A stretch of DNA of 64,000 nt. It comes from an uncultured Solirubrobacterales bacterium (GTDB taxonomy: Bacteria; Actinomycetota; Thermoleophilia; Solirubrobacterales; 70-9). How positions within the stretch are numbered: the stretch's first letter is position 1; each line of letters begins with the position of its first letter. Positions 6,599 through 20,105 of the stretch are shown piece after piece. A model generated the notes under the pieces. It had not been told where the DNA came from. It made no database searches and saw nothing but the letters and a program-made list of their open reading frames with translations. The position numbers and the translations under genes were made by a program. The stretch is taken from assembly GCA_963778715.1 (NCBI GenBank), contig CAVZVK010000005.1:2698-66697 (forward strand). The letters run 5' to 3'.

Positions 6599-7309
6599 CG
6601 GCGCGGCGCGGTGGCGCTCGAGCTCGGCGACCATCAGCTTGGTGTGCAGGGCGGCGATCAGGTCCTGGAGGGGCTGGGCGCCGGCTTCGAGCATCTCGAC
6701 CACGCGCTCGGGCGAGACCTCGCCGGCGAGGCGGTCCATCACCATCTCGACCTCCTCGCGGACCAGGTCTTCGAGGGCGCTCTTGTAGCGCAGGGTGTCG
6801 TAGACGGTGAAGCCGATCTCCTCGTCGTAGCCGCCGGCGCGGAAGCGGCTGATCGCCTCGATGATCTTCACGTCGGAGGGCGAGTAGCCGCGGCTGTTGG
6901 GGCTCAGCACCTCGAGCTTCTCGAGCCGGTCGAGCACCTCCTTGGGGACGCCGTAGCGCTCGCGCACCTCGGCGGCGCTGGTCCGGGTGCGCTCGCCGGC
7001 CAGGGCGCGGTCGAGGATGCGGTCCTCGAGCTCGACCAGGGCGCGGGCGCGCTCGGGGTCCTCGTCGAGCACCGACTTGATCGCCTTCAGCGGCATGAAG
7101 CGCTCCTCCTGCAGCTGCTTGATCAGCTTGATCCGGTCGACGAACTCGGGCGGGTAGTAGGCCATGTTGCGGCTGGTCTTGACCGGCTCGGGCAGCAGGC
7201 CCTCGCGCAGGTAGTGCTTGATCGTCGGCGCCGGCACGCCGGAGGCCTCGGCCAGCTCGCCCATCCGCAGCAGCCGTCCGCCGGTCTTGCGCCGTTGGCC
7301 CGGGCTCAT
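6554..7309 (-). CDS. MerR-family transcriptional regulator
   Basis: ATG at 7309. [32 protein letters not shown] plus a long helical C-terminal part. It forms the lower part of fused ORF 6554..7588. The last few residues are uncertain. Confidence 0.8.
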
Positions 7310-11081: not shown

Positions 11082-11866
11082 TACCGTCCCTTCCACTGCG
11101 GATCGCGTTTCTCGAAGAATGCGCGTGACGCCCTCGACGATGTCCTCGGTCGAGAAGGTGAGCGAGAGCTGCGAGCGCAGGTACTCGAGCGCGTCGTCGA
11201 CCGCCATGTCCTGCTGGCGGTACATCGCGTCGTGGCCGAGCCGCATCAGCACCGGGCTCTTGGAGGCGAGCTTCGTCGCCCAGTCGGCGACCGCGGCGTC
11301 GAACTCGCCGGCCGGGACGACCTTGTTGGCGAGCCCGTACTCGACCGCCTGCTCGGCGCTCAGCCGCTCGCCCAGCAGCATCATCTCGTTGACCTTCTTG
11401 CGCGGGACGTTGCGGTAGATGATCGCCATGATCATGTAGGGGAAGGCGCCGACGTTGATCTCCGGCGTGCCGAAGGTGGCGCCCTCTTTGGCGATCACCA
11501 GGTCGCAGGAGAGGGCGAGGCCCATCCCGCCCGCCAGGACGTGGCCGTTGGCCGCGCAGAGGGAGGGCTTGCCGAGGCGCGGCATCAGCCGGAAAAATTC
11601 GAGGAAGAGGTCGGTGGCGAAGTGTTTGGCGACGAGCGGAACGTCGGCGGCGAAGCCACCCGAGGTCCGCCCCGGCGCAGAAGACTTTGTCGCCCGCGCC
11701 CGGTGAGGACGACCGCGCGCACCTCCTCGGCGTCGCGCGCCGTCTTCATCGCGTCGACCAGCTCGGCCAGCATCTGCCCGGAGAGCATGTTGCGCTTCTC
11801 CGGGTTGTTCAGCGTCACCGTGGCGACGCCGTCGGCGACCTCGTACTTGACGACCTCGTAGTCCAT
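11081..11866 (-). pseudogene. enoyl-CoA hydratase/isomerase (crotonase) family, at least 2 apparent frameshifts
   Basis: MDYEVVKYEVADGVATVTLNNPEKRNML (ATG 11866). Then AANGHVLAGGMGLALSCDLVIA and FGTPEINVG (upper part of ORF 9654..11585). A shifted frame ends RAFFEKRDPQWKGR with TAG at 11081..11083. Confidence 0.8.
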
Positions 11867-11925
11867 CGAGGCGAGACCATAGCCGAACCGCGCTGAAAGT
11901 AGGAAGTGCTACTGTCCACCCGCAC

Positions 11926-11988
11926 GACGTGTCTGAGTTTAGGCCGCCGCATATGGACGGCCCAGAAGATCAGACACCCCCTGCCGAT
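11926..11988. repeat. nested-hairpin element, copy A (outer stem GTGTCTGA/TCAGACAC, inner stem GGCCG/CGGCC)
   Basis: Read directly: GACGTGTCTGAGTTTA-GGCCGccgcatatggaCGGCC-cagaagaTCAGACACCCCC. It lies in the divergent region between the crotonase and ACAD genes. A second copy is at 42525..42580. Confidence 0.6.
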
Positions 11989-12016
11989 CACGAACTGCGA
12001 ACGAGGAGAGAGACCA

Positions 12017-13240
12017 GTGGCGACCGCGACGACCAACGGCTCCAAAGTCATCAAGCCCGACTTCGAGGCGGGCCGCAAGCACTTCATCTTCAGCCAGGAG
12101 CACGAAGACCTGCGCGAGTCGATGCAGTCGTGGGTGAAGAAGGAGCTGTGGCCGCACCGCAACGAGTGGGAGGACACCTACTGGCCGACTCCGACGCGAT
12201 GAAGCGGGCCGGCGAGCTCGGCTTCCTCGGCCTCTGCTTCCCCGAGGAGTACGGCGGCCAGGGCGGCGACTACTTCTACTCGCTGGTCCGCGCCGAGTGC
12301 ATGAGCTACTCCGGCTCCGGCGGCACCAACATGGGCTTCGCCGTGCAGAGCGACATGGTGCTGCCGCCGATCCACCTGCTCGGCACCGAGGAGCAGAAGC
12401 GCCGCTACCTCGAGCCGGGCCTCAAGGGCGAGAAGATCGGCTGCCTCGGGATCACCGAGCCGGGCGCCGGCTCCGACGTCGCCGGCATCCGCACCACGCG
12501 CGATCCGCGACGGCGACGAATACGTGATCAACGGCTCCAAGACCTTCATCACCAACGGCCCCCGCGCCGACTTCATCGTCCTCGTCACCAAGACCGACCC
12601 CGAGCGCCCGCCACGAGGGCATCACGCTCTTCGTCCTCGACCTGCGCGACGAGGAGGGCGAGCACGTGCCCGGCTTCAGCGTCTCGGCCGAGCTGGAGAA
12701 GATGGGAATGCACGCCTCCGACACCGGCGAGCTCTCCTTCGAAGACGTCCGCGTGCCGGCCGACGCCGTGCTCGGCGAAGTCGGCAAGGGCTTCTACCAC
12801 ATCGCCTGGGAGCTCCAGGGCGAGCGGCTGGTCGCCGCCGCCGGCTGCCACGCGGGTGCGGAGCGGATGATCGAGAAGACGCTCGAGTACGCCAAGGAGC
12901 GCGAAGCCTTCGGCCGCCCGATCGGCAAATTCCAGGCGATCCGCCACAAGTTCGCCGAGATGGCGACCAAGACCGAGGCCGCGAAGCAGTTCACCTACGC
13001 GACCGCCTGGCGCTTCGCCAACGGCGAGTACCCGGTGCGCGAGATCACGATGGCCAAGCTCTTCGCCTCCCGCGTCGCCTGCGAGGTCGCCGACGACTGC
13101 GGTCCAGATCCTCGGCGGCTACGGCTACATGAAGGAGTACGAGATCGAGCGCGCCTACCGCGACGTCCGCCTCAACCGGATCGGCGCCGGGCACCGACGA
13201 GGTGATGCTCGACGTGATCGGGCGCTCCTACGGGCTGTAG
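12017..13240 (+). pseudogene. acyl-CoA dehydrogenase (paralog 1), about 5 apparent frameshifts
   Basis: AGGAGAG then GTG 12017. Blocks FLGLCFPEEYGGQGG, KIGCLGITEPGAGSDVAGI, NGSKTFITNG, EREAFGRPIGKFQAIRHKFAEMATK and GGYGYMKEYEIERAYRDVRL are spread over 4 ORFs. TAG at 13238..13240. Confidence 0.85.
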
Positions 13241-13255
13241 AGCGCTGGAAGTCGG

Positions 13256-13435
13256 TCAGGCGTTGGTCGCGATGACCGTGCCGATGGTGGCGAAGATGCC
13301 GAGCATAGTCGCACCCCAGAGCTGGAACATGAGCATGCGCAAATCCCGGATGTCCCGGTCGACGCGCTCGAATCCCGCGTCCACTTTGTGGGCCAGGTCA
13401 TTTAGTCGCTCGTCAGTCCACATCGTTCGCTCCAT
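13256..13435 (-). CDS. small hypothetical protein (59 aa) with a hydrophobic C-terminal segment
   Basis: Internal ATG 13435 of ORF 13256..13600: MERTMWTDERLNDLAHKVDAGFERVDRDIRDLRMLMFQLWGATMLGIFATIGTVIATNA. The codon usage looks protein-like. The upstream part of the ORF overlaps the ACAD2 start. Confidence 0.5.
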   Translation of the reverse strand: MERTMWTDERLNDLAHKVDAGFERVDRDIRDLRMLMFQLWGATMLGIFATIGTVIATNA

Positions 13436-13487
13436 GCTGGCGACGCTAACAGACACCAACGCAGACAACACGCTTCGAGTGTAACGG

Positions 13488-14666
13488 ATGACGGTAATCA
13501 AAGACACAGGACAGCGCGCCACCCTTCCCCCCTTCGGCGAGGAGCACGAGGAGCTGCGGGAGACGGTCAGCCGCTTCGTCGCCAAGGAGATCGCGCCCAA
13601 CGTCGACGAGTGGGAGGAGGCGCGTGAATTCCCCCGCGAGCTCTACGGGCGCTGCGCCGAGCTGGGCTTCCTCGGCCTGAAGTTCCCGGAGGAGTACGGC
13701 GGTCAGGGCGGCACGCATCTGCACGACGCGATCTGGGTCGAAGAGCTGGCGCGCTCCGGCGGCTCCGGCGGCGTCGCCGCCGGGCTCAACGCCCACACCT
13801 CGATCGCGATGCCGCCGATCTTCAACTTCGGCACCGAGGAGCAGAAGCAGCGCTGGCTGGTGCCGGGAATCGCCGGCGAGAAGATCGGCGCGCTGGGGAT
13901 CACCGAGCCGGGCGCCGGCTCCGACGTCGCTGGCATCTCCACCTTCGCCCGCAAGGTCGACGGCGGCTACGTCGTCAACGGCTCCAAGACCTTCATCACC
14001 AACGGCGTCCGCGCCGACTTCCTCGTCTGCGCGGTGAAGACGACGCAGGAGGGCGGCCACGGCGGCATCTCCTTCCTCGTCCTCGAGCGCGAGATGCCCG
14101 GCTACGAGGTGGCGCAGAAGCTGGAGAAGATGGGCTGGCACTCCTCCGACACGGGCGAGCTGGCCTTCACCGACGTCGAGGTGCCCGAGGAGAACCTGCT
14201 CGGCGAGGAGAACGGGGGCTTCAAGCTGATCATGGCCAACTTCGCCTGGGAGCGGCTGCTGATGGCGATCGGCGCCGTCGGCGCGATGCAGCGCCTGATC
14301 GAGCGGACCGTCGAGTACGCCCTCGAGCGCGAAGCCTTCGGCCGCCCCATCGGCAAGTTCCAGGCGATCCGCCACCAGGTCGCCGAGATGGCGACCAAGG
14401 CCGAGACCTCCCGCGCCCTCACCTACAACGCCCTGCGCCTCTTCCACGAAGGCCAGGACTGCATCCAGGACGTGACGATGGCCAAGCTCGTCACCCAGCG
14501 CGCCGTCCTCGAGATAGCCGACCAATCCCTCCAGATCCACGGCGGCTACGGCTACATGCGCGAGTACGGCATAGAGCGAGCCGTCCGCGACGCCCGCCTC
14601 GGCCCAATCGGCGGCGGCACGGACGAGGTAATGAAGGAGATCCTCGGCAAGCTGATGGGGCTGTAG
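13488..14666 (+). CDS. acyl-CoA dehydrogenase (paralog 2), intact
   Basis: 392-aa uninterrupted ORF with FLGLKFPEEYGGQGG, KIGALGITEPGAGSDVAGI, NGSKTFITNG, EREAFGRPIGKFQAIRHQVAEMATK and GGYGYMREYGIERAVRDARL. Confidence 0.93.
   Translation: MTVIKDTGQRATLPPFGEEHEELRETVSRFVAKEIAPNVDEWEEAREFPRELYGRCAELGFLGLKFPEEYGGQGGTHLHDAIWVEELARSGGSGGVAAGLNAHTSIAMPPIFNFGTEEQKQRWLVPGIAGEKIGALGITEPGAGSDVAGISTFARKVDGGYVVNGSKTFITNGVRADFLVCAVKTTQEGGHGGISFLVLEREMPGYEVAQKLEKMGWHSSDTGELAFTDVEVPEENLLGEENGGFKLIMANFAWERLLMAIGAVGAMQRLIERTVEYALEREAFGRPIGKFQAIRHQVAEMATKAETSRALTYNALRLFHEGQDCIQDVTMAKLVTQRAVLEIADQSLQIHGGYGYMREYGIERAVRDARLGPIGGGTDEVMKEILGKLMGL
14631..14662. repeat. left boundary direct repeat (att-like), ATGAAGGAGATCCTCGGCAAGCTGATGGGGCT
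   Basis: Encodes the last residues MKEILGKLMGL of ACAD paralog 2. It matches 18700..18731 with one mismatch. Confidence 0.85.
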
Positions 14667-14713
14667 GGATTAGCAGGGATTTCCCGCTCCTTCTCCCCGT
14701 CGTCCGCATCGGG

Positions 14714-14736
14714 CGGACACGATTCGGACACATCGC
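14714..14736. repeat. internal direct repeat CGGACACGATTCGGACACATCGC (arm-site-like, contains CGGACAC twice)
   Basis: 22/23 identical to 18562..18584. Lies 51 bp inside the left boundary repeat. Confidence 0.75.
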
Positions 14737-14819
14737 TCCGCGCCTGGGCGATCTGATCCTCGGCAGACACGCGCTAGCAGCTATCGAGCACATATCGCTA
14801 CTGTTTCGTGCCCTAGCCC

Positions 14820-15089
14820 ATGTCGCTCGCGTCTGAAAGCGTCCCAACCGCGATGCGCCGCTCCGATCAGCCCCAGCCCGCCCTAGGCAAAGCAATCCGC
14901 CAGCTTCGCCAAAAGCGCGGCGTCACCCAGGAAGACCTCGCCCACGAGGCCGACATCACCACTGGCACCCTCTCCCTGATCGAGCGCGGCCAGGCCAACC
15001 CGACCTGGGGAACCCTCAAGGGCATCGCAGCCGGACTCGGTATTTCGATGGGCGAGCTAGGAAAGCTCGCCGACAAATTCGAGCATTAG
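14820..15089 (+). CDS. XRE/Cro-family helix-turn-helix protein
   Basis: 89-aa ORF. LGKAIRQLRQKRGVTQEDLAHEADITTGTLSLIERGQANPTWGTLKGIAAGLGISMGEL is a classic HTH_3 pattern. An alternative ATG is at 14853. Confidence 0.85.
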   Translation: MSLASESVPTAMRRSDQPQPALGKAIRQLRQKRGVTQEDLAHEADITTGTLSLIERGQANPTWGTLKGIAAGLGISMGELGKLADKFEH

Positions 15090-15173
15090 CTCACTGAAAG
15101 TTTAAGAACTTATCTGTTTACATTCAACTGTGTAAAGTCCCGCTGCGATTCGCCAGGGGTCGGAGGCTCAAAG

Positions 15174-15650
15174 ATGACGGGGTCAGAGGTTTATGTCGGT
15201 ATAAACGTTGCCGGGGGTATCGCTTACCTGGGGGTCTGCCGAGGCAAGCAGCTCGACCTAAGCGATTCTGCCGAAAGCATCGAGCCAAACCGACAACTGG
15301 CGCTGGCAGAGCAGCTAGAGGATTTCCGTGCCCGCCTCGGTCAGGAGTTTCGGCGTCTCGCACCACAAGAAGTCGGGATAGCCCGTACGCGTAAGTTCTC
15401 ACAGTGGCAGTACAAACCAGCCGCGGCACGCTTCGGGCTGGAGGCAGTAGCCATGATGGCAGCCATACAGGAGGGGATCCCCTGCAGCATGGTGGTGCAG
15501 GAGGATGCTGCAAAGGCGGCCCAGGTGCCTGTCACCAAGTTTGCGGAGGCCATGCCTGCCCGATTTGGAATCGATCCAACCCATCACTGGGACAAACGAG
15601 CTCTGGCCTTCGCGACGGCCCTTGCATTGGCGAAGGGCGAAACGAGATGA
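15174..15650 (+). CDS. hypothetical 158-aa protein, possible RuvC/RNase-H-like fold with degenerate catalytic residues
   Basis: GGAGG lies 7 nt upstream of the ATG. N-terminal VYVGINVAGGIAYLGV and later AAARFGLEAVAMMAAIQEGIPCSMV and DKRALAFATALALA resemble the resolvase topology by eye. The stop overlaps the kinase ATG. Confidence 0.55.
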   Translation: MTGSEVYVGINVAGGIAYLGVCRGKQLDLSDSAESIEPNRQLALAEQLEDFRARLGQEFRRLAPQEVGIARTRKFSQWQYKPAAARFGLEAVAMMAAIQEGIPCSMVVQEDAAKAAQVPVTKFAEAMPARFGIDPTHHWDKRALAFATALALAKGETR

Positions 15651-16753
15651 CTGGAGCTCGTACTGAGCTCCGCAAGCTGACACTGCCATATGCCGCCCTG
15701 GAGACGGTTTATCAAGGGGACTGCGAAGTACGGCAATATCGCAACGAGCTAACTGGACAGCTTCAGGTCGGCAAGCGCATAGACGTCCTCGGAATGGAGG
15801 AGGCAGTTGCCTTTCGCGAGGGGGAACTGCTGCAGCAAATTGATCATCAGCACCTTGCCAAGGTGCAAGAGGTCGTTGAGGTGTCTGGCTATCCAGAGCC
15901 AATGCACGTCATCGAGCTGATCATGCCCTGGTATGAGCGGGGAAGTATCTGTGATGCCCTTCTTCGGGGAGAGGAATTCTCAGTGGGAGAGGCAATTACG
16001 CTCATGGCCGGCGGCCTGCTCGGTGTAGCTGAGCTGCACGAGTGTCATGGCATCCTGCATCGCGACCTTAAGTCACCGAACTTCTTTCTCTCCGATGACG
16101 ATCGGTTGTTGGTCGGTGATCTAGGAGCAGCCGCTCCTATGGACACAGATGGTTCGGCGGAGGCCCTGCCAGCGCCACGCCTCTACTCCCCGCCGGAGTC
16201 ACTCACCGTGGGACGACTTGACCGTCGCTCTGAGATTTATCAGTGCGGCCTCGTGCTTCATGAGCTTGTTTCAGGATCCTTCCCGTACGACGATCCGAAG
16301 CTATCGATCGATTCCGTGGCATCGCGGCTGGCAGAGGGAAAGCCAGCACTCCGACCAACCCATTTGATCCACGCTCCTTGGGTACCGCGCGGCCTTCGCT
16401 CAGTTATCAACAAAGCGCTGCAGACAAACCCCGCTGCCCGTTATTCCAGTACGCAACACATGAGTAGGGCGTTGAACCGAGTTACATACGTCGACTGGCG
16501 TCGCATCGTCGACACTCCTGACCGCAAACGATGGGAGGGAACAACGGTCCATCATCCTGGTCGCCGCTTTGCGGTTGAGGCCAAACTCATGCCTCCAAAT
16601 CGCCGTCGCCACAAATCGGCCTGGGCTCTAAGCGGGCTCCAACGCGTGAACCGTTGGCAGCGGATGATTCCCGATGCACCAGCTACAGATCTCGACGGAA
16701 CTCAGGCCACCCACTTCTTCGACCAAATGGTCGTTAGTGCCACCAAACGTTGA
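15647..16753 (+). CDS. Hanks-type Ser/Thr protein kinase (368 aa) with an uncharacterised C-terminal extension of about 100 aa
   Basis: ATGA overlap with the upstream gene. Motifs QVGK43, HRDLKSPN (codons from 16058), GDLG and YSPPE. The Gly-rich loop is degenerate (VYQGDCEV). The upstream 81 codons of ORF 15404..16753 overlap the previous gene and are not used. Confidence 0.85.
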   Translation: MTGARTELRKLTLPYAALETVYQGDCEVRQYRNELTGQLQVGKRIDVLGMEEAVAFREGELLQQIDHQHLAKVQEVVEVSGYPEPMHVIELIMPWYERGSICDALLRGEEFSVGEAITLMAGGLLGVAELHECHGILHRDLKSPNFFLSDDDRLLVGDLGAAAPMDTDGSAEALPAPRLYSPPESLTVGRLDRRSEIYQCGLVLHELVSGSFPYDDPKLSIDSVASRLAEGKPALRPTHLIHAPWVPRGLRSVINKALQTNPAARYSSTQHMSRALNRVTYVDWRRIVDTPDRKRWEGTTVHHPGRRFAVEAKLMPPNRRRHKSAWALSGLQRVNRWQRMIPDAPATDLDGTQATHFFDQMVVSATKR

Positions 16754-17118
16754 GCCGACTGGGTAAGCACGGCGCGTTCGTCTGCAGGGAGATGCTGGAG
16801 CAAGTCCCTGTGTCGCTGCAACCAAGCACTCTGTGCTCGGTAGGACGCTCCGGCACCTTTGCCCTCCGGCTTGATTGCGCCAGCCGCGGCGGCCTCACGA
16901 AGAACTGAACGCAAGCTAACGACCCGCCGGTCGGCCCTGGTCCGGCTCGTTAGAAGTGCTCGAATCGCAGGCGCAAGCCTAGGAATCACGGCAAGTTCGC
17001 CCGCCAACTCCTCGATTGCTCCCTCCAGCGGCCAGCCATCAACTGGAATCCGGCTGATACCGCTAGCGGTCCACAGCAAGCCGACAAGCGACAGCGGGCT
17101 GATCAGCGGCGTCGACAT
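16702..17118 (-). CDS. hypothetical protein (138 aa)
   Basis: Uninterrupted ORF with ATG at 17118 and no motif I recognise. Its 3' end overlaps the kinase 3' end by 52 nt (convergent). It is divergent from the wHTH gene 21 bp away. Confidence 0.5.
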   Translation of the reverse strand: MSTPLISPLSLVGLLWTASGISRIPVDGWPLEGAIEELAGELAVIPRLAPAIRALLTSRTRADRRVVSLRSVLREAAAAGAIKPEGKGAGASYRAQSAWLQRHRDLLQHLPADERAVLTQSAQRLVALTTIWSKKWVA

Positions 17119-17143
17119 TTGTAAGGTTAGACTTTACATTTGT
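17115..17143. promoter_or_regulatory. two ACATTTGT direct repeats 21 bp apart, each overlapping one of two divergent start codons
   Basis: ACATTTGT at 17115..17122 (contains CAT, the ATG of the minus-strand gene) and at 17136..17143 (contains the TTG of the plus-strand gene). AT-rich spacer. Confidence 0.4.
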
Positions 17144-17487
17144 CAGCCGACGGAAAAGCGCGACAGAAACGTGGCGGTCCAAAGCCAACCGACCTCGCTG
17201 ATTGGCTATTTGGCTATGGCCCGAGGCGGAGGTTGCTCGCATGTCTTTGGGGCCCAAAGACGCACCGGGTGATTCCGCCAAAGAAAGGCTTTTCTGCTGC
17301 TCAGCTCGCTGGTATGGCCGGTAAGTCCCGCCCTGCGATTGAGGCGGATATCGCTTCGCTTGAGCGCCTGGGGCTACTCACCCGCAAGCAGATCGGGAAA
17401 CGCGATCGCTTCTTCCCTCGCTCTACCCGGCTGGCCAGAGCAATCAACGCTTTGATCCGCGCGGTTGACGATGCAGTCGGCATCTAA
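17140..17487 (+). CDS. winged-helix (ArsR/MarR-like) DNA-binding protein
   Basis: 115-aa ORF with a TTG start. RRRLLACLWG...FSAAQLAGMAGKSRPAIEADIASLERLGLLTRKQIGKRDRFF fits an H1-H2-H3-wing pattern. Confidence 0.6.
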   Translation: MSADGKARQKRGGPKPTDLADWLFGYGPRRRLLACLWGPKTHRVIPPKKGFSAAQLAGMAGKSRPAIEADIASLERLGLLTRKQIGKRDRFFPRSTRLARAINALIRAVDDAVGI

Positions 17488-17564
17488 TCCGCGTCCCAAA
17501 TCACAGCTCGTGAATGTTCCATCCGAGGGAGCATGTAATCTGTGCCTTGCAAGGTACGGATTTA

Positions 17565-18164
17565 ATGTCTCCACGAATAAAAGATTCCCCACTTCTGACG
17601 AGAAATGAGATCGCTGAGATCAGCGGTGTCTCGATCAATGCTGTGAACAAGGCGCTTGAACAACGGGTCGCAAAGGCGCGGCGACAGCGGGGACGAACAT
17701 TGCTGGCGGCCGATGAGGCGGCGGCGCTGGCGCTGCTCTCGGAACTTCCGATTAGCCTCTCGATCAAGTTCAAACGTGAGGTGCGGAACTGGATCGTCGG
17801 GCGGAACCCCGCCAGAGCGGAGGAGTTCGAGCTTTCGCGAGCCCTGCGAGTTGCAATGACGGAGAACGCCGCCGATGTGGCCAAACGGGCGTTTGACTAC
17901 GTGCGCCTGCGTGAGAGGTACGTCGAGGTCGATCCAGGCAAGAGGGGCGGCACGCCGGTGATCCGAGGGACGCGGGTGCCGGTGCGAACCCTGGCTCAGC
18001 TTGTCGAGGGCGGGGAGAGCCCTAAGGCGCTCAAGGAGGACTACCCGCACATTCCAGAGGAGGCATACGACGTTGCCGTGCTGTGGGCAAAGGGAAATCC
18101 ACGCCGCGGGCGGCCAACCGGACAGCATCGGCTCCAAACGGCGGGTCACGCCCCAACGGCGTGA
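17565..18164 (+). CDS. DUF433-domain protein with an N-terminal HTH-like region (putative antitoxin)
   Basis: ATG at 17565 within ORF 17514..18164. The C-terminal GGTPVIRGTRVPVRTLAQLVEGGESPKALKEDYPHIPEEAYDVAVLWA matches the DUF433 signature as I know it. Confidence 0.7.
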   Translation: MSPRIKDSPLLTRNEIAEISGVSINAVNKALEQRVAKARRQRGRTLLAADEAAALALLSELPISLSIKFKREVRNWIVGRNPARAEEFELSRALRVAMTENAADVAKRAFDYVRLRERYVEVDPGKRGGTPVIRGTRVPVRTLAQLVEGGESPKALKEDYPHIPEEAYDVAVLWAKGNPRRGRPTGQHRLQTAGHAPTA

Positions 18165-18559
18165 AACTCTGGATTGACGAGTGCTTGTCGCCGACTCTTG
18201 TAGCGCGCGCCAATCGTCGCGGATACTGGGCGACCTGCAACCGCGACCGAGATCTGCTCGGCATCGCCGATAAGAACCTGCACGAGCTGGTCATTGACGA
18301 AGAAGCGGTTTTCGTCACGAATGACGAAGCGGATTTCGTCGCGCTCTACAAGAGGGTCGATCTGCACACCGGCCTCCTGATCTTGCCGCAGACCGATACA
18401 CGCGAGTCGCTATGGCGTCTGCTCGATGTCGCGCTCGACTACATCGAGCAGAAGGCCCGCATCGCAGCCGAGACAGCCGCCGAGTGGATGCTAAACAAGC
18501 GGATCGAGGTCGATCCGGGCGGCAAAGCCACCCACAATGATCTACCGGGCAGGGAATAG
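18161..18559 (+). CDS. DUF5615/Mut7-C-like PIN-fold protein (putative toxin)
   Basis: GTG 18161 overlaps the upstream stop (GTGA). KLWIDECLSPTLV...AVFVTNDEADFVAL resembles DUF5615 proteins, which pair with DUF433. Confidence 0.6.
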   Translation: MKLWIDECLSPTLVARANRRGYWATCNRDRDLLGIADKNLHELVIDEEAVFVTNDEADFVALYKRVDLHTGLLILPQTDTRESLWRLLDVALDYIEQKARIAAETAAEWMLNKRIEVDPGGKATHNDLPGRE

Positions 18560-18561
18560 CG

Positions 18562-18584
18562 CGGACACGATCCGGACACATCGC
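18562..18584. repeat. internal direct repeat CGGACACGATCCGGACACATCGC (partner of 14714..14736)
   Basis: 22/23 identical. Lies 115 bp inside the right boundary repeat. It is followed by three CGTGCC motifs at 18651, 18671 and 18681. Confidence 0.75.
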
Positions 18585-18699
18585 CGAGACCACCACCGAT
18601 CACGACCGACAATCGCCCTCATCCCCGAACAAGCTGATTTGCTTGAAATCCGTGCCCTCGGATGATCCCGCGTGCCCCCCCGTGCCATGCTCGGAAGTC

Positions 18700-18731
18700 A
18701 TGAAGGAGATCCTCGGCAAACTGATGGGGCT
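18700..18731. repeat. right boundary direct repeat ATGAAGGAGATCCTCGGCAAACTGATGGGGCT
   Basis: A non-coding relic that would still translate to MKEILGKLMGL followed by TGA. 31/32 identical to 14631..14662. Confidence 0.85.
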
Positions 18732-19466
18732 TTGAAGCCGGTTGCTACCGCCTCGGCCTCACTCCTGATCTGGGTCTGCGCTGCCATGCAGCTGGGCGGG
18801 CCCGCATTCGCCGGGCCGAACAGCCTTCGACCCAGAGGGGATGCGAGCAACGTGCCACGACCACGGATCACGCGGCGGCTGATCCCATTCCCACCCAAGC
18901 GCAAGCGGCAGATGATGGCCTACTCGGAGCGGCACTACGGGGAACACACTTGGCGGCTGCGGCACCCGCGGATGATCGTCGAGCACTGGGCGGAAACGGG
19001 CAGTGCTTCGGCCGTCTACAACACGTTCGCGCCTGACACACCCGATCCGGAGCTGCATGAGCTGCCCAATGTCTGCGCGCATTTCGTCGTCTCGGGGGAC
19101 GGGCGCATCAATCAGCTGGTCTCGACGCGGATTCGCTGCCGGCACACGGTCGGGCTCAACTGGACGGCGATCGGGATCGAGCACACTGGTTTCAGCGACG
19201 GCGAAGTGCTGGGCGATCGGCGGCAGATGCATGCGTCGCTGCGGCTGACGCGATATTTGCGCTGTCGCTTTCAGATCCGGATCCGCAACGTGATCGGCCA
19301 CGCGGAGAGCCTCTCCTCGCCCTACCACCGCGAGCGCGTGCGGAGCCTGCGGACGCAGACGCACGGTGACTGGCGGCATCGGTCGATGCAGACGTACCGG
19401 CGGCAGCTTTGCCATCTTGGCTCCTGCTCAGGCCGAGATGATCGACAGGCCCAGCCCCGCGGCTGA
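18732..19466 (+). CDS. N-acetylmuramoyl-L-alanine amidase (Amidase_2/PGRP-like), probably secreted
   Basis: ORF 18672..19466. Signal-like KPVATASASLLIWVCAAMQLGGPAFA. Then AHFVVSGDGRINQLV, TVGLNWTAIGIEHTG and NVIGHAE. The start is uncertain; TTG 18732 is proposed because upstream codons lie in the island repeat. Confidence 0.65.
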   Translation: MKPVATASASLLIWVCAAMQLGGPAFAGPNSLRPRGDASNVPRPRITRRLIPFPPKRKRQMMAYSERHYGEHTWRLRHPRMIVEHWAETGSASAVYNTFAPDTPDPELHELPNVCAHFVVSGDGRINQLVSTRIRCRHTVGLNWTAIGIEHTGFSDGEVLGDRRQMHASLRLTRYLRCRFQIRIRNVIGHAESLSSPYHRERVRSLRTQTHGDWRHRSMQTYRRQLCHLGSCSGRDDRQAQPRG

Positions 19467-19499
19467 GCCAAGGCTTGGCGGCGACGCCATCTGGGTACC

Positions 19500-20105
19500 G
19501 TGACCCGCATGGAAGAGGTGATCGACGGCGTATTCCACTGGAAGGCGATCCATCCGCGGATCGAAGCCGAGGTGGGCTGTCATTTCGTGCCGGGGTCCGG
19601 CACGCTGATCGACCCGCTGGTACCGGACGAGGGGATCGAGTGGTTCGACGGCCGCGGTGTGCAGCGCGTCGTCCTCTCCACTCGCCACCACCTGCGCCAC
19701 GCACCGCGCTTCGCCGAGCGCTTCGGCTGTCCCATCCTCTGCCACGAGTCGGGCCTCTACGAGTTCGAGGGCGACCCGGACGTCGACGGCTTCGCCTTCG
19801 GCGACCGGCTCGCCGAGGACGTGGTCGCGCTCGAGATGGACTCGATCTCCCCCGACGACACGGTTCTCCAGATCGAAACCGGAGGCGGCGCGCTGCTCTT
19901 CGCCGACAGCCTCATCCACTACGACGCCGTCGGCTTCGTCCCGGACCGATTGATCGGCGACGACCCCGAGGGGGTCAAGCGCAGCATCCGCGCCCGCGCC
20001 GGCGAGCTGCTCCAGGAGCGTTTCGAGCACCTCCTCTTCGCCCATGGCGACCCCCTGCTCGGCGAAGGCCGCGAGGCGCTGCGGGGAATCGCCAGGGGCC
20101 ATTGA
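19500..20105 (+). CDS. hypothetical protein, possible metallo-beta-lactamase-fold
   Basis: 201-aa uninterrupted ORF. VVLSTRHHLRH and LLFAHGDP are only loosely MBL-like, so the family call is weak. Confidence 0.4.
   Translation: MTRMEEVIDGVFHWKAIHPRIEAEVGCHFVPGSGTLIDPLVPDEGIEWFDGRGVQRVVLSTRHHLRHAPRFAERFGCPILCHESGLYEFEGDPDVDGFAFGDRLAEDVVALEMDSISPDDTVLQIETGGGALLFADSLIHYDAVGFVPDRLIGDDPEGVKRSIRARAGELLQERFEHLLFAHGDPLLGEGREALRGIARGH

Follow-up and report, generated by a model that had tools for sequence, protein, structure and literature searches.

To our knowledge, kinase-based immunity and kinase toxins are represented in bacteria by few examples, most of them single genes, and how such kinases sense infection is largely an open question. 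Among the closest described systems, Stk2 of Staphylococcus epidermidis and PD-T4-6 (Vassallo et al. 2022) are each a single gene on mobile or variable DNA, with a soluble eukaryotic-like Ser/Thr kinase as the presumed effector. HipBST is a small, kinase-centred tripartite toxin-antitoxin (TA) cassette, in which the kinase HipT has the HipA fold and HipS is the HipA N-terminal subdomain made as a separate protein. Hanks-type kinase domains also occur in the multigene defence systems MADS and BREX type 2, as parts of the large proteins MAD6 and PglW, and CapK-CapS is a kinase/repressor pair located upstream of immune operons, consisting of an anti-sigma-factor-type kinase and a STAS-domain protein (PMC13373217). 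Here, we analysed a 64,000-nucleotide (nt) stretch of DNA from an uncultured Solirubrobacterales bacterium (hereafter the window; contig CAVZVK010000005.1, positions 2,698 to 66,697), for which a preliminary description had proposed a triad of genes for an XRE-type helix-turn-helix (HTH) protein, a RuvC-like adaptor and a Hanks-type kinase. We found that the preliminary description covers the left two-thirds of a cassette of four genes that is self-contained and horizontally mobile; its conserved unit is composed of the gene for the RuvC-like protein (gene 2), the kinase gene (gene 3), a convergent gene overlapping the latter (gene 4) and a gene for a small DNA-binding protein. As judged from its sequence features, the cassette could be a conflict module with a kinase as its effector, of either the toxin-antitoxin or the abortive-infection type, a reading to which we assign a probability of about 45%.

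All coordinates and motifs of the three genes reported earlier were reproduced upon re-reading of the sequence. Gene 1 (14820-15089, plus strand) encodes an XRE/Cro-type HTH protein of 89 amino acids (aa) that matches Pfam HTH_3 with E=5e-14. Gene 2 (15174-15650, plus strand) codes for a protein of 158 aa, and a GGAGG ribosome-binding site can be read at 15162-15166, 7 nt before its ATG; the three strings of its product quoted in the preliminary description are located at residues 6-21, 83-107 and 140-153. The stop codon of gene 2 is overlapped by the start codon of gene 3 (ATGA at 15647-15650), which encodes the 368-aa kinase (15647-16753, plus strand). In the mechanical list of open reading frames (ORFs), the kinase frame runs back to 15404; we placed the start at 15647, since the N-termini of 27 homologues align and independent gene calls give 368 aa. 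With E-values of homologues reaching 1e-220, genes 2 and 3 are real, conserved genes rather than chance ORFs. Gene 4 (16702-17118, minus strand) is convergent to the kinase gene and encodes an orphan protein of 138 aa, the two 3' ends overlapping on opposite strands by 52 nt (16702-16753), and gene 5 (17140-17487, plus strand), for a protein of 115 aa, is divergent from gene 4. The preliminary description included neither of these two genes, which extend beyond the coordinates that it gave. No Rfam family was detected in 14000-20000 of the window, and scans for promoters and terminators gave chance-level results.

Loci for comparison were drawn from a genome collection, from contigs encoding homologues of the kinase or of gene 2 and from a plasmid collection, and they were tested by six-frame ORF scans with hidden Markov models (HMMs) of gene 2, the kinase and gene 4. 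Gene 2 was present directly upstream of the kinase gene in 18 of 18 distinct loci, whereas about 105 loci with unrelated kinases were devoid of it; these negative controls included loci from a metagenome scan carrying generic HRD-motif kinases. The junction of the two genes is either an overlap or a gap of no more than 5 nt in all 12 loci analysed for this feature, and the coupling suggested for the window is thus a property of the family. Furthermore, the pairwise-identity matrices of gene 2, the kinase and gene 4 were found to correlate with one another across 12 loci (Mantel r of 0.75, 0.86 and 0.68), and 0 of 2000 permutations gave a value as high. The kinase and gene 4 form the tightest co-evolving pair (r of 0.86). 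These data indicated that the three genes are passed on together as a unit.

Gene 1 does not belong to this unit. Searches with phmmer detected it only in near-identical copies of the window island (L001-L006), and in three other loci a housekeeping gene directly abuts gene 2, namely, an alcohol dehydrogenase-type gene (L012), a DnaB gene (L019) and a ribonucleotide reductase gene (L020). Thus, gene 1 is a local accessory of the window island, and the proposed triad does not hold as such: the neighbourhood is conserved insofar as gene 2 and the kinase gene always occur together, but its HTH member is not conserved. This also bears on the parallel with HipBST drawn in the preliminary description. 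The gene order in the window is as stated there, and the two systems have in common a small kinase-centred cassette with a small partner gene just upstream of the kinase gene, preceded by an XRE HTH gene in the window island only. The likeness is an analogy: the cassette kinase has the Hanks/Pkinase fold in place of the HipA fold of HipT, and the predicted RuvC fold of gene 2 is unrelated to HipS, two differences that had been recognized from the outset. Since the kinase fold and the partner both differ and the HTH lacks conservation, the cassette is distinct from HipBST; in addition, it contains two more conserved genes that have no HipBST counterpart.

The protein encoded by gene 2 in the window yielded no match in the Pfam, NCBIfam, PADLOC and PHROGs libraries, falling below the gathering threshold of the Pfam RuvC family (PF02075). 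A word-indexed protein search returned just 3 close relatives, while an exhaustive HMMER search from a small alignment revealed a family of 132 representative clusters, most of which are 150-170 aa in length. When a profile of 78 family sequences was compared with the Protein Data Bank (PDB), one significant match was obtained, to full-length Deinococcus RuvC (7w8d; E=1.5e-4), and 2 of the 78 members reached PF02075, the better of them with E=7.6e-6. The AlphaFold (AF2) model built on the 78-sequence alignment has a mean confidence (pLDDT) of 95.5 and a beta-beta-beta-alpha-beta-alpha-beta-alpha topology; it was used instead of a model from a 4-sequence alignment, which was all-helical with a pLDDT of only 42. 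Foldseek searches with the former placed bacterial RuvC structures on top (E down to 7e-10), including those of T. thermophilus, D. radiodurans and E. coli (TM 0.72-0.77), and phage RuvC-like proteins ranked first in the viral library. These results back the assignment to RuvC that had been made by eye.

Inspection of the active-site positions gave a very different picture from that of a resolvase. RuvC carries an acidic catalytic tetrad (D7, E66, D138 and D141 in E. coli numbering). At the column of the first Asp, the 78 family members have Asn (30), His (25), Ser (12), Ala (4) or Asp (2), such that Asn, His and Ser account for 67 of the 78, and at the column of the last Asp, Ala (45) and Ser (13) prevail. 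In the window protein, these positions are occupied by N11 and A143, with A70/R71 at the position of the Glu, which bears out the earlier remark that the first acidic position is Asn and that the second Glu has no equivalent. The residues conserved in the family are instead R54, R60, R73, W78, Y80, R86, W139 and R142. We conclude from profile and model that the gene 2 family is predicted to have the RuvC fold over the whole protein and that the catalytic centre appears to be gone across the family; we refer to the product as a putative pseudo-resolvase, or pseudo-RuvC. Relative to RuvC proper, it shares the fold end to end and gives a full-length profile match to the Deinococcus enzyme, but it lacks the acidic catalytic residues, is not located beside ruvAB and is always paired with a kinase. 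We did not file gene 2 as RuvC, because it fails both the catalytic-residue and the Pfam-threshold tests.

A subfamily of gene 2 homologues (P0146, P0148, P0151 and P0164) has N-terminal extensions of 120-190 residues, which are rich in Pro, Ala, Glu and Asp and apparently disordered. In long homologues inspected for fusions, the N-terminal extensions proved to be of low complexity, with no detectable domain; in the four proteins named, they could be real or could stem from miscalled start codons in high-GC genomes. Another long homologue, P0254, was discarded as a spurious repeat protein.

The product of gene 3 matches Pfam Pkinase (PF00069) over residues 27-273 with 89.5 bits (cut-off 31.7; E=3e-25), and Pkinase and PK_Tyr_Ser-Thr are its only Pfam matches. 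As seen in a 28-sequence family alignment, the beta3 Lys (K43) is nearly invariant, and E58, H138-R139-D140, K142, N145, D158 (in GDLG) and P183-E184 (in PPE) are invariant. The Gly-rich loop is degenerate (VYQGDCEV), G24 being the only position conserved there, so that the intact Hanks core and the unusual loop described for the window both extend to the family. No transmembrane (TM) segment, membrane domain or sensor domain was found in the protein, and it is apparently a soluble, cytoplasmic and active Hanks-type Ser/Thr enzyme with an intact catalytic core. The family comprises at least 138 clusters of about 360 aa that can be aligned from end to end, the last ~95 residues included. Because homologues align through this region, we regard it as a conserved, family-specific C-terminal domain (residues ~276-368; nt 16472-16750, plus strand), in which D283, W284 and F358 are invariant and several Trp residues are nearly so. 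It matches no Pfam family, and its profile gave only noise against the PDB; the C-terminus left unassigned in the preliminary description therefore stays an orphan after profile searches. Residues 8-33 (15668-15745; LTLPYESxRTxYEGxSEVRLYRNE), which lie before and across the Gly-rich loop, are among the best conserved in the family, and they may serve as a docking site for gene 2 and not only as an ATP lid.

We then compared the kinase with those of known systems. Its best PADLOC matches were to mad6 (E=7.7e-32) and PD-T4-6 (best E=3.6e-26), over the generic kinase domain only, and the Stk2 model gave E=3.5e-6; the domain is equally close to the solved PknB/StkP structures as to anything else. 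NCBIfam scores were far under the cut-offs for MAD6 (NF047741; 52.8 versus 460), for PglW (24.8 versus 990) and likewise for PknB-PASTA, and no HipA-family model was among the Pfam or NCBIfam matches. Like Stk2 and PD-T4-6, the cassette kinase is a soluble eukaryotic-like Ser/Thr kinase encoded on mobile or variable DNA. However, those two are single genes, whereas the cassette kinase is always linked to the pseudo-RuvC, the convergent orphan and the DNA-binding protein, has a C-terminal domain of its own, and resembles them in the generic kinase domain only, scoring no better with the PD-T4-6 models than with Pfam Pkinase. That it never occurs without gene 2 (18 of 18 loci) argues for a system other than a stand-alone PD-T4-6, although an automatic annotator would probably label the kinase PD-T4-6 and overlook the other genes. 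MAD6 and PglW likewise have Hanks-type kinase domains in multigene settings, but they are much larger proteins; given scores far under the cut-offs and the absence of their partner genes, the cassette is neither MADS nor BREX. With CapK-CapS, the cassette has in common the concept of a kinase that is joined to a small DNA-binding partner near defence genes and is triggered by DNA-derived signals, but there is no homology, the gene order is different, and CapK-CapS has no RuvC-like component. In the open-access papers and preprints searched, no system was found in which a RuvC-like protein is paired with a Ser/Thr kinase; this composition was equally absent from the PADLOC, Pfam, NCBIfam and PHROGs libraries, in line with the earlier statement that no such system had been described.

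Gene 4 was detected in 15 of 15 loci with enough sequence downstream of the kinase gene, the most distant homologues being those of Micromonospora (E=5e-11), a Curtobacterium plasmid (1.6e-5) and Streptomyces (2e-4). In each of the 12 loci measured, the 3' ends of gene 4 and the kinase gene overlap, the length of the overlap being 52-142 nt. When gene 4 of the window was compared with an 87%-related copy (L008), substitutions fell on codon positions 1, 2 and 3 in numbers of 13, 6 and 34, and this pattern, together with conservation across the loci, indicated that gene 4 is a real coding gene. The word-indexed search returned 8 relatives of its product, which has no match in Pfam, NCBIfam, PADLOC or PHROGs and gave only noise in a profile search of the PDB. 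A possible winged-helix element (LRxLAAxGxLxPEGxGWxAGYR) was considered on the basis of a single weak PaaX match (E=0.037) and is not claimed here. Two homologues are absent from RefSeq-derived gene tables, one on the Curtobacterium plasmid NZ_CP104931 (L129, 6975-7454, minus strand) and the other in Nocardioides antri (L019, 8026-8487, minus strand). The omission of gene 4 from annotation is apparently a systematic gap owing to its opposite-strand overlap with the kinase gene.

The fourth member of the cassette is the most variable in kind. In the window, this is gene 5, for which the Pfam and PADLOC scans gave weak HTH matches only and whose product is probably a winged-helix DNA-binding protein. 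Homologues of gene 5 are present in L009, L015, L130 and L131, while the fourth position is taken elsewhere by a MerR_1 protein (L012), a LysR-type HTH protein (HTH_1; L017) or other small proteins, some of them unassigned. Judging by these domain matches, the fourth cassette gene appears to encode a small, interchangeable DNA-binding protein of varying family.

Hosts of the cassette span at least four bacterial phyla and include Actinomycetota, Pseudomonadota, Myxococcota and Rhodothermales. The actinomycetote hosts are Solirubrobacterales, Streptomyces malaysiensis, S. samsunensis and S. demainii, Nocardioides antri and N. rotundus, a Micromonospora sp. and Curtobacterium flaccumfaciens, in which it is carried on a plasmid; further copies reside in metagenome-assembled genomes assigned to Pseudomonadota, Polyangia/Myxococcales and Rhodothermales. 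Throughout, the public names of the cassette proteins are "hypothetical protein" or "protein kinase." The metagenome scan with the kinase profile returned generic HRD-motif kinases (22-33% identity) and zero members of the family. The flanks of the cassette differ in every locus, and since housekeeping genes abut it in L012, L019 and L020, we reasoned that it moves as a unit. Among 126 neighbour ORFs in 13 loci, the commonest Pfam family was Phage_integrase (4 ORFs), and rve was found twice. Neighbours among the loci also include Shedu SduA, AriA/PtuA-like ATPases, a PbeA-like helicase and HEC-07. The plasmid copy (L129) lies beside genes for a RES toxin and TniQ, and L131 lies beside an AAA_21 ATPase pair; near the cassette are genes for a DNA methylase, an SNF2 helicase, DUF1156 and DUF499 in L132, CHAT and PIN_12 genes in L130, a PIN gene in L009 and a Tn7/Mu-like transposition set in L020. 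Overall, the surroundings of most loci are those of mobile elements or conflict systems. The DnaB helicase gene beside the Nocardioides antri cassette (3490-6219 of L019) holds an intein with a LAGLIDADG homing endonuclease, which is unrelated to the cassette.

In the window, the cassette is part of an island. The GC content is 57-62% over 15000-18500, compared with about 68-74% in the flanks, and a 38-nt direct repeat brackets 4.1 kb that contain gene 1, the four cassette genes and a DUF433/DUF5615 pair. The left, attL-like copy (14625-14662) is the 3' end of an acyl-CoA dehydrogenase gene (13488-14666). The right, attR-like copy (18694-18731) is 92% identical to it and still encodes ...EVMKEILGKLMGL-stop, the same last 13 residues, with only synonymous differences. 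In L001, from a 97%-related genome, repeat copies at 7209-7237 and 11525-11553 flank the same gene set. Such a repeat pair is characteristic of elements that have integrated site-specifically at the 3' end of a gene. In the window, the 38-nt repeats enclose no integrase gene, and the element is therefore either a remnant or dependent on mobilisation in trans. The DUF433 and DUF5615 (PIN-like) genes (17514-18559, plus strand; Pfam E-values of 6e-15 and 8e-11), which lie outside the cassette, have what looks like a typical antitoxin-toxin arrangement. Together with the low GC content and the att-like repeats, this pair supports the earlier claim of a horizontally acquired island adjoining a TA pair.

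Several further features of the island were observed. The mechanical ORFs for DUF433 (17514-18164) and DUF5615 (18083-18559) overlap by 82 nt, while the gene calls of a relative give proteins of 199 and 132 aa with a 4-nt overlap, which suggests later starts. A second direct repeat, of 29 nt and 90% identity, is present just inside the island (14708-14736 and 18556-18584); it follows the 38-nt copy on the left and precedes it on the right, so that the two repeat pairs are not collinear, and an exact-pattern search found it once in L001. Right after the right repeat, L001 has a block (11523-14977) with a PIN_3 gene and its 78-aa partner and genes for a 448-aa protein and a Fic protein. This block is missing from the window (18732-19500), where an ORF with an Amidase_2 domain (18672-19466) is found instead. 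The spot to the right of the island appears to be a hotspot gathering toxin-type genes.

How might the cassette work? In keeping with the general layout of type II TA systems, a small upstream partner overlaps the gene of the candidate effector, on mobile or variable DNA. If the cassette is a conflict module, the pseudo-RuvC would be made in a fixed ratio with the kinase through translational coupling, and it would inhibit the kinase and/or act as its sensor, e.g., through contact with branched DNA or with a phage protein directed against RuvC; it might also act as a decoy that attracts invader proteins directed against RuvC. Upon its release or activation, the kinase would phosphorylate cellular or invader proteins and bring about growth arrest, and gene 4 and the DNA-binding protein would set expression by autoregulation and by converging transcription that runs through the overlap. 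While gene content, folds, active-site status, linkage, co-evolution and genomic context come from the sequence analysis itself, the formation of a complex, its toxicity, what triggers it and how it is regulated are what we infer for the cassette. A more specific version is speculative and, in our estimation, on the unlikely side: an immune or addiction module in which a non-catalytic Holliday-junction resolvase has been turned into the sensor or regulatory subunit of a eukaryotic-like kinase, senses branched intermediates that arise as an invader replicates or recombines, or decoys the invader's RuvC-targeting proteins, and switches on a cell-shutdown kinase, with gene 4 as a third component under overlapping antisense transcription. 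Several points weigh against a conflict module. The roles of toxin, antitoxin and sensor would not be assignable to individual proteins from sequence, and neither gene 4 nor the kinase C-terminal domain has an assignable fold when sequence profiles are compared with the PDB. The PADLOC matches tie the kinase to no defence family, because they cover the generic domain only and score about the same as Pfam Pkinase or PknB/StkP. As regards context, the neighbours were tallied over ~17 loci with no statistical background to set them against. Searches of IMG/VR viral contigs and GenBank phage records turned up no close relative, and the viral-contig scan with the kinase yielded generic kinases only.

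Four other explanations were considered. The cassette could be a regulatory switch of mobile elements, in which DNA damage or branched DNA activates the kinase via the pseudo-RuvC and phosphorylation of gene 4 and/or the DNA-binding protein de-represses excision, transfer or defence neighbours, a logic similar to that of CapK-CapS. The constant presence of a small DNA-binding protein as the fourth gene, MerR-like or excisionase-like (HTH_17-like) in several loci, would suit such a switch, and so would the frequent integrases and transposases among the neighbours, the location of the window cassette in an att-flanked island devoid of an integrase, and the precedent of a kinase-repressor pair governing immune operons upon DNA damage (PMC13373217). 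Yet the cassette has no homology to CapK-CapS, no constant regulated target exists since the neighbours differ in every locus, and in L012, where the cassette sits between two housekeeping genes, there is nothing to regulate; we consider the switch doubtful. That the window encodes a HipBST-like tripartite TA system, with XRE HTH, RuvC-like adaptor and kinase, as first proposed, is now quite improbable. The same-strand order of HTH, small protein and kinase in the window, the coupling of genes 2 and 3 and a weak similarity of gene 1 to HipB/Y4mF-type antitoxin models in NCBIfam, all far below the cut-offs, speak for it. It is contradicted by the restriction of the HTH to near-identical island copies and the housekeeping genes that abut gene 2 elsewhere, by a kinase that matches Pkinase and no HipA-family model, and by a gene 2 product that is not HipS-like because of its RuvC fold, and it leaves out the conserved genes 4 and 5.

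An arrangement as in type VII TA systems would invert the roles. In Mycobacterium tuberculosis, the kinase TakA keeps TglT inactive by phosphorylation, and the cassette kinase might similarly be an antitoxin that phosphorylates a toxic gene 4 or gene 2 product into inactivity. The tight co-evolution of the kinase with gene 4 (r of 0.86), the orphan nature of gene 4 and a convergent overlap that could link expression levels are consistent with this idea, but neither gene 4 nor gene 2 has enzymatic or membrane-toxin features, gene 2 lacks a nuclease centre, and no homology to known type VII pairs was found in the Pfam, PADLOC and NCBIfam libraries, which leaves it no more probable than the HipBST-like system. 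The least probable of all, by a little, is that the kinase is an ordinary housekeeping signalling enzyme with accessory proteins, unrelated to conflict or mobility. Its catalytic domain is indeed equally similar to PknB/StkP-type signalling kinases, and metabolic genes adjoin some loci. Nevertheless, the cassette is patchily distributed over four phyla, its location changes from genome to genome, a plasmid carries one of the copies, the window copy lies in a low-GC island with att-like repeats, and the kinase has no membrane or sensor domain.

Taken together, the above-described results define a compact, widespread and completely unannotated system, whose cultured hosts include Streptomyces, Nocardioides, Micromonospora and, on a plasmid, Curtobacterium. 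Two orphans come with it, namely, gene 4 and the C-terminal domain of the kinase, and it provides a case in which annotation pipelines routinely skip a conserved core gene, apparently because of its opposite-strand overlap with the kinase gene. A DNA-junction-binding fold that is predicted to be stripped of catalysis and is hard-wired to a Hanks kinase offers a concrete, testable hypothesis for sensing. Even if the cassette turns out to regulate mobile elements, it would constitute a novel control circuit built on a kinase. In our preferred reading, it would be an uncharacterised addition to the kinase-based conflict modules.

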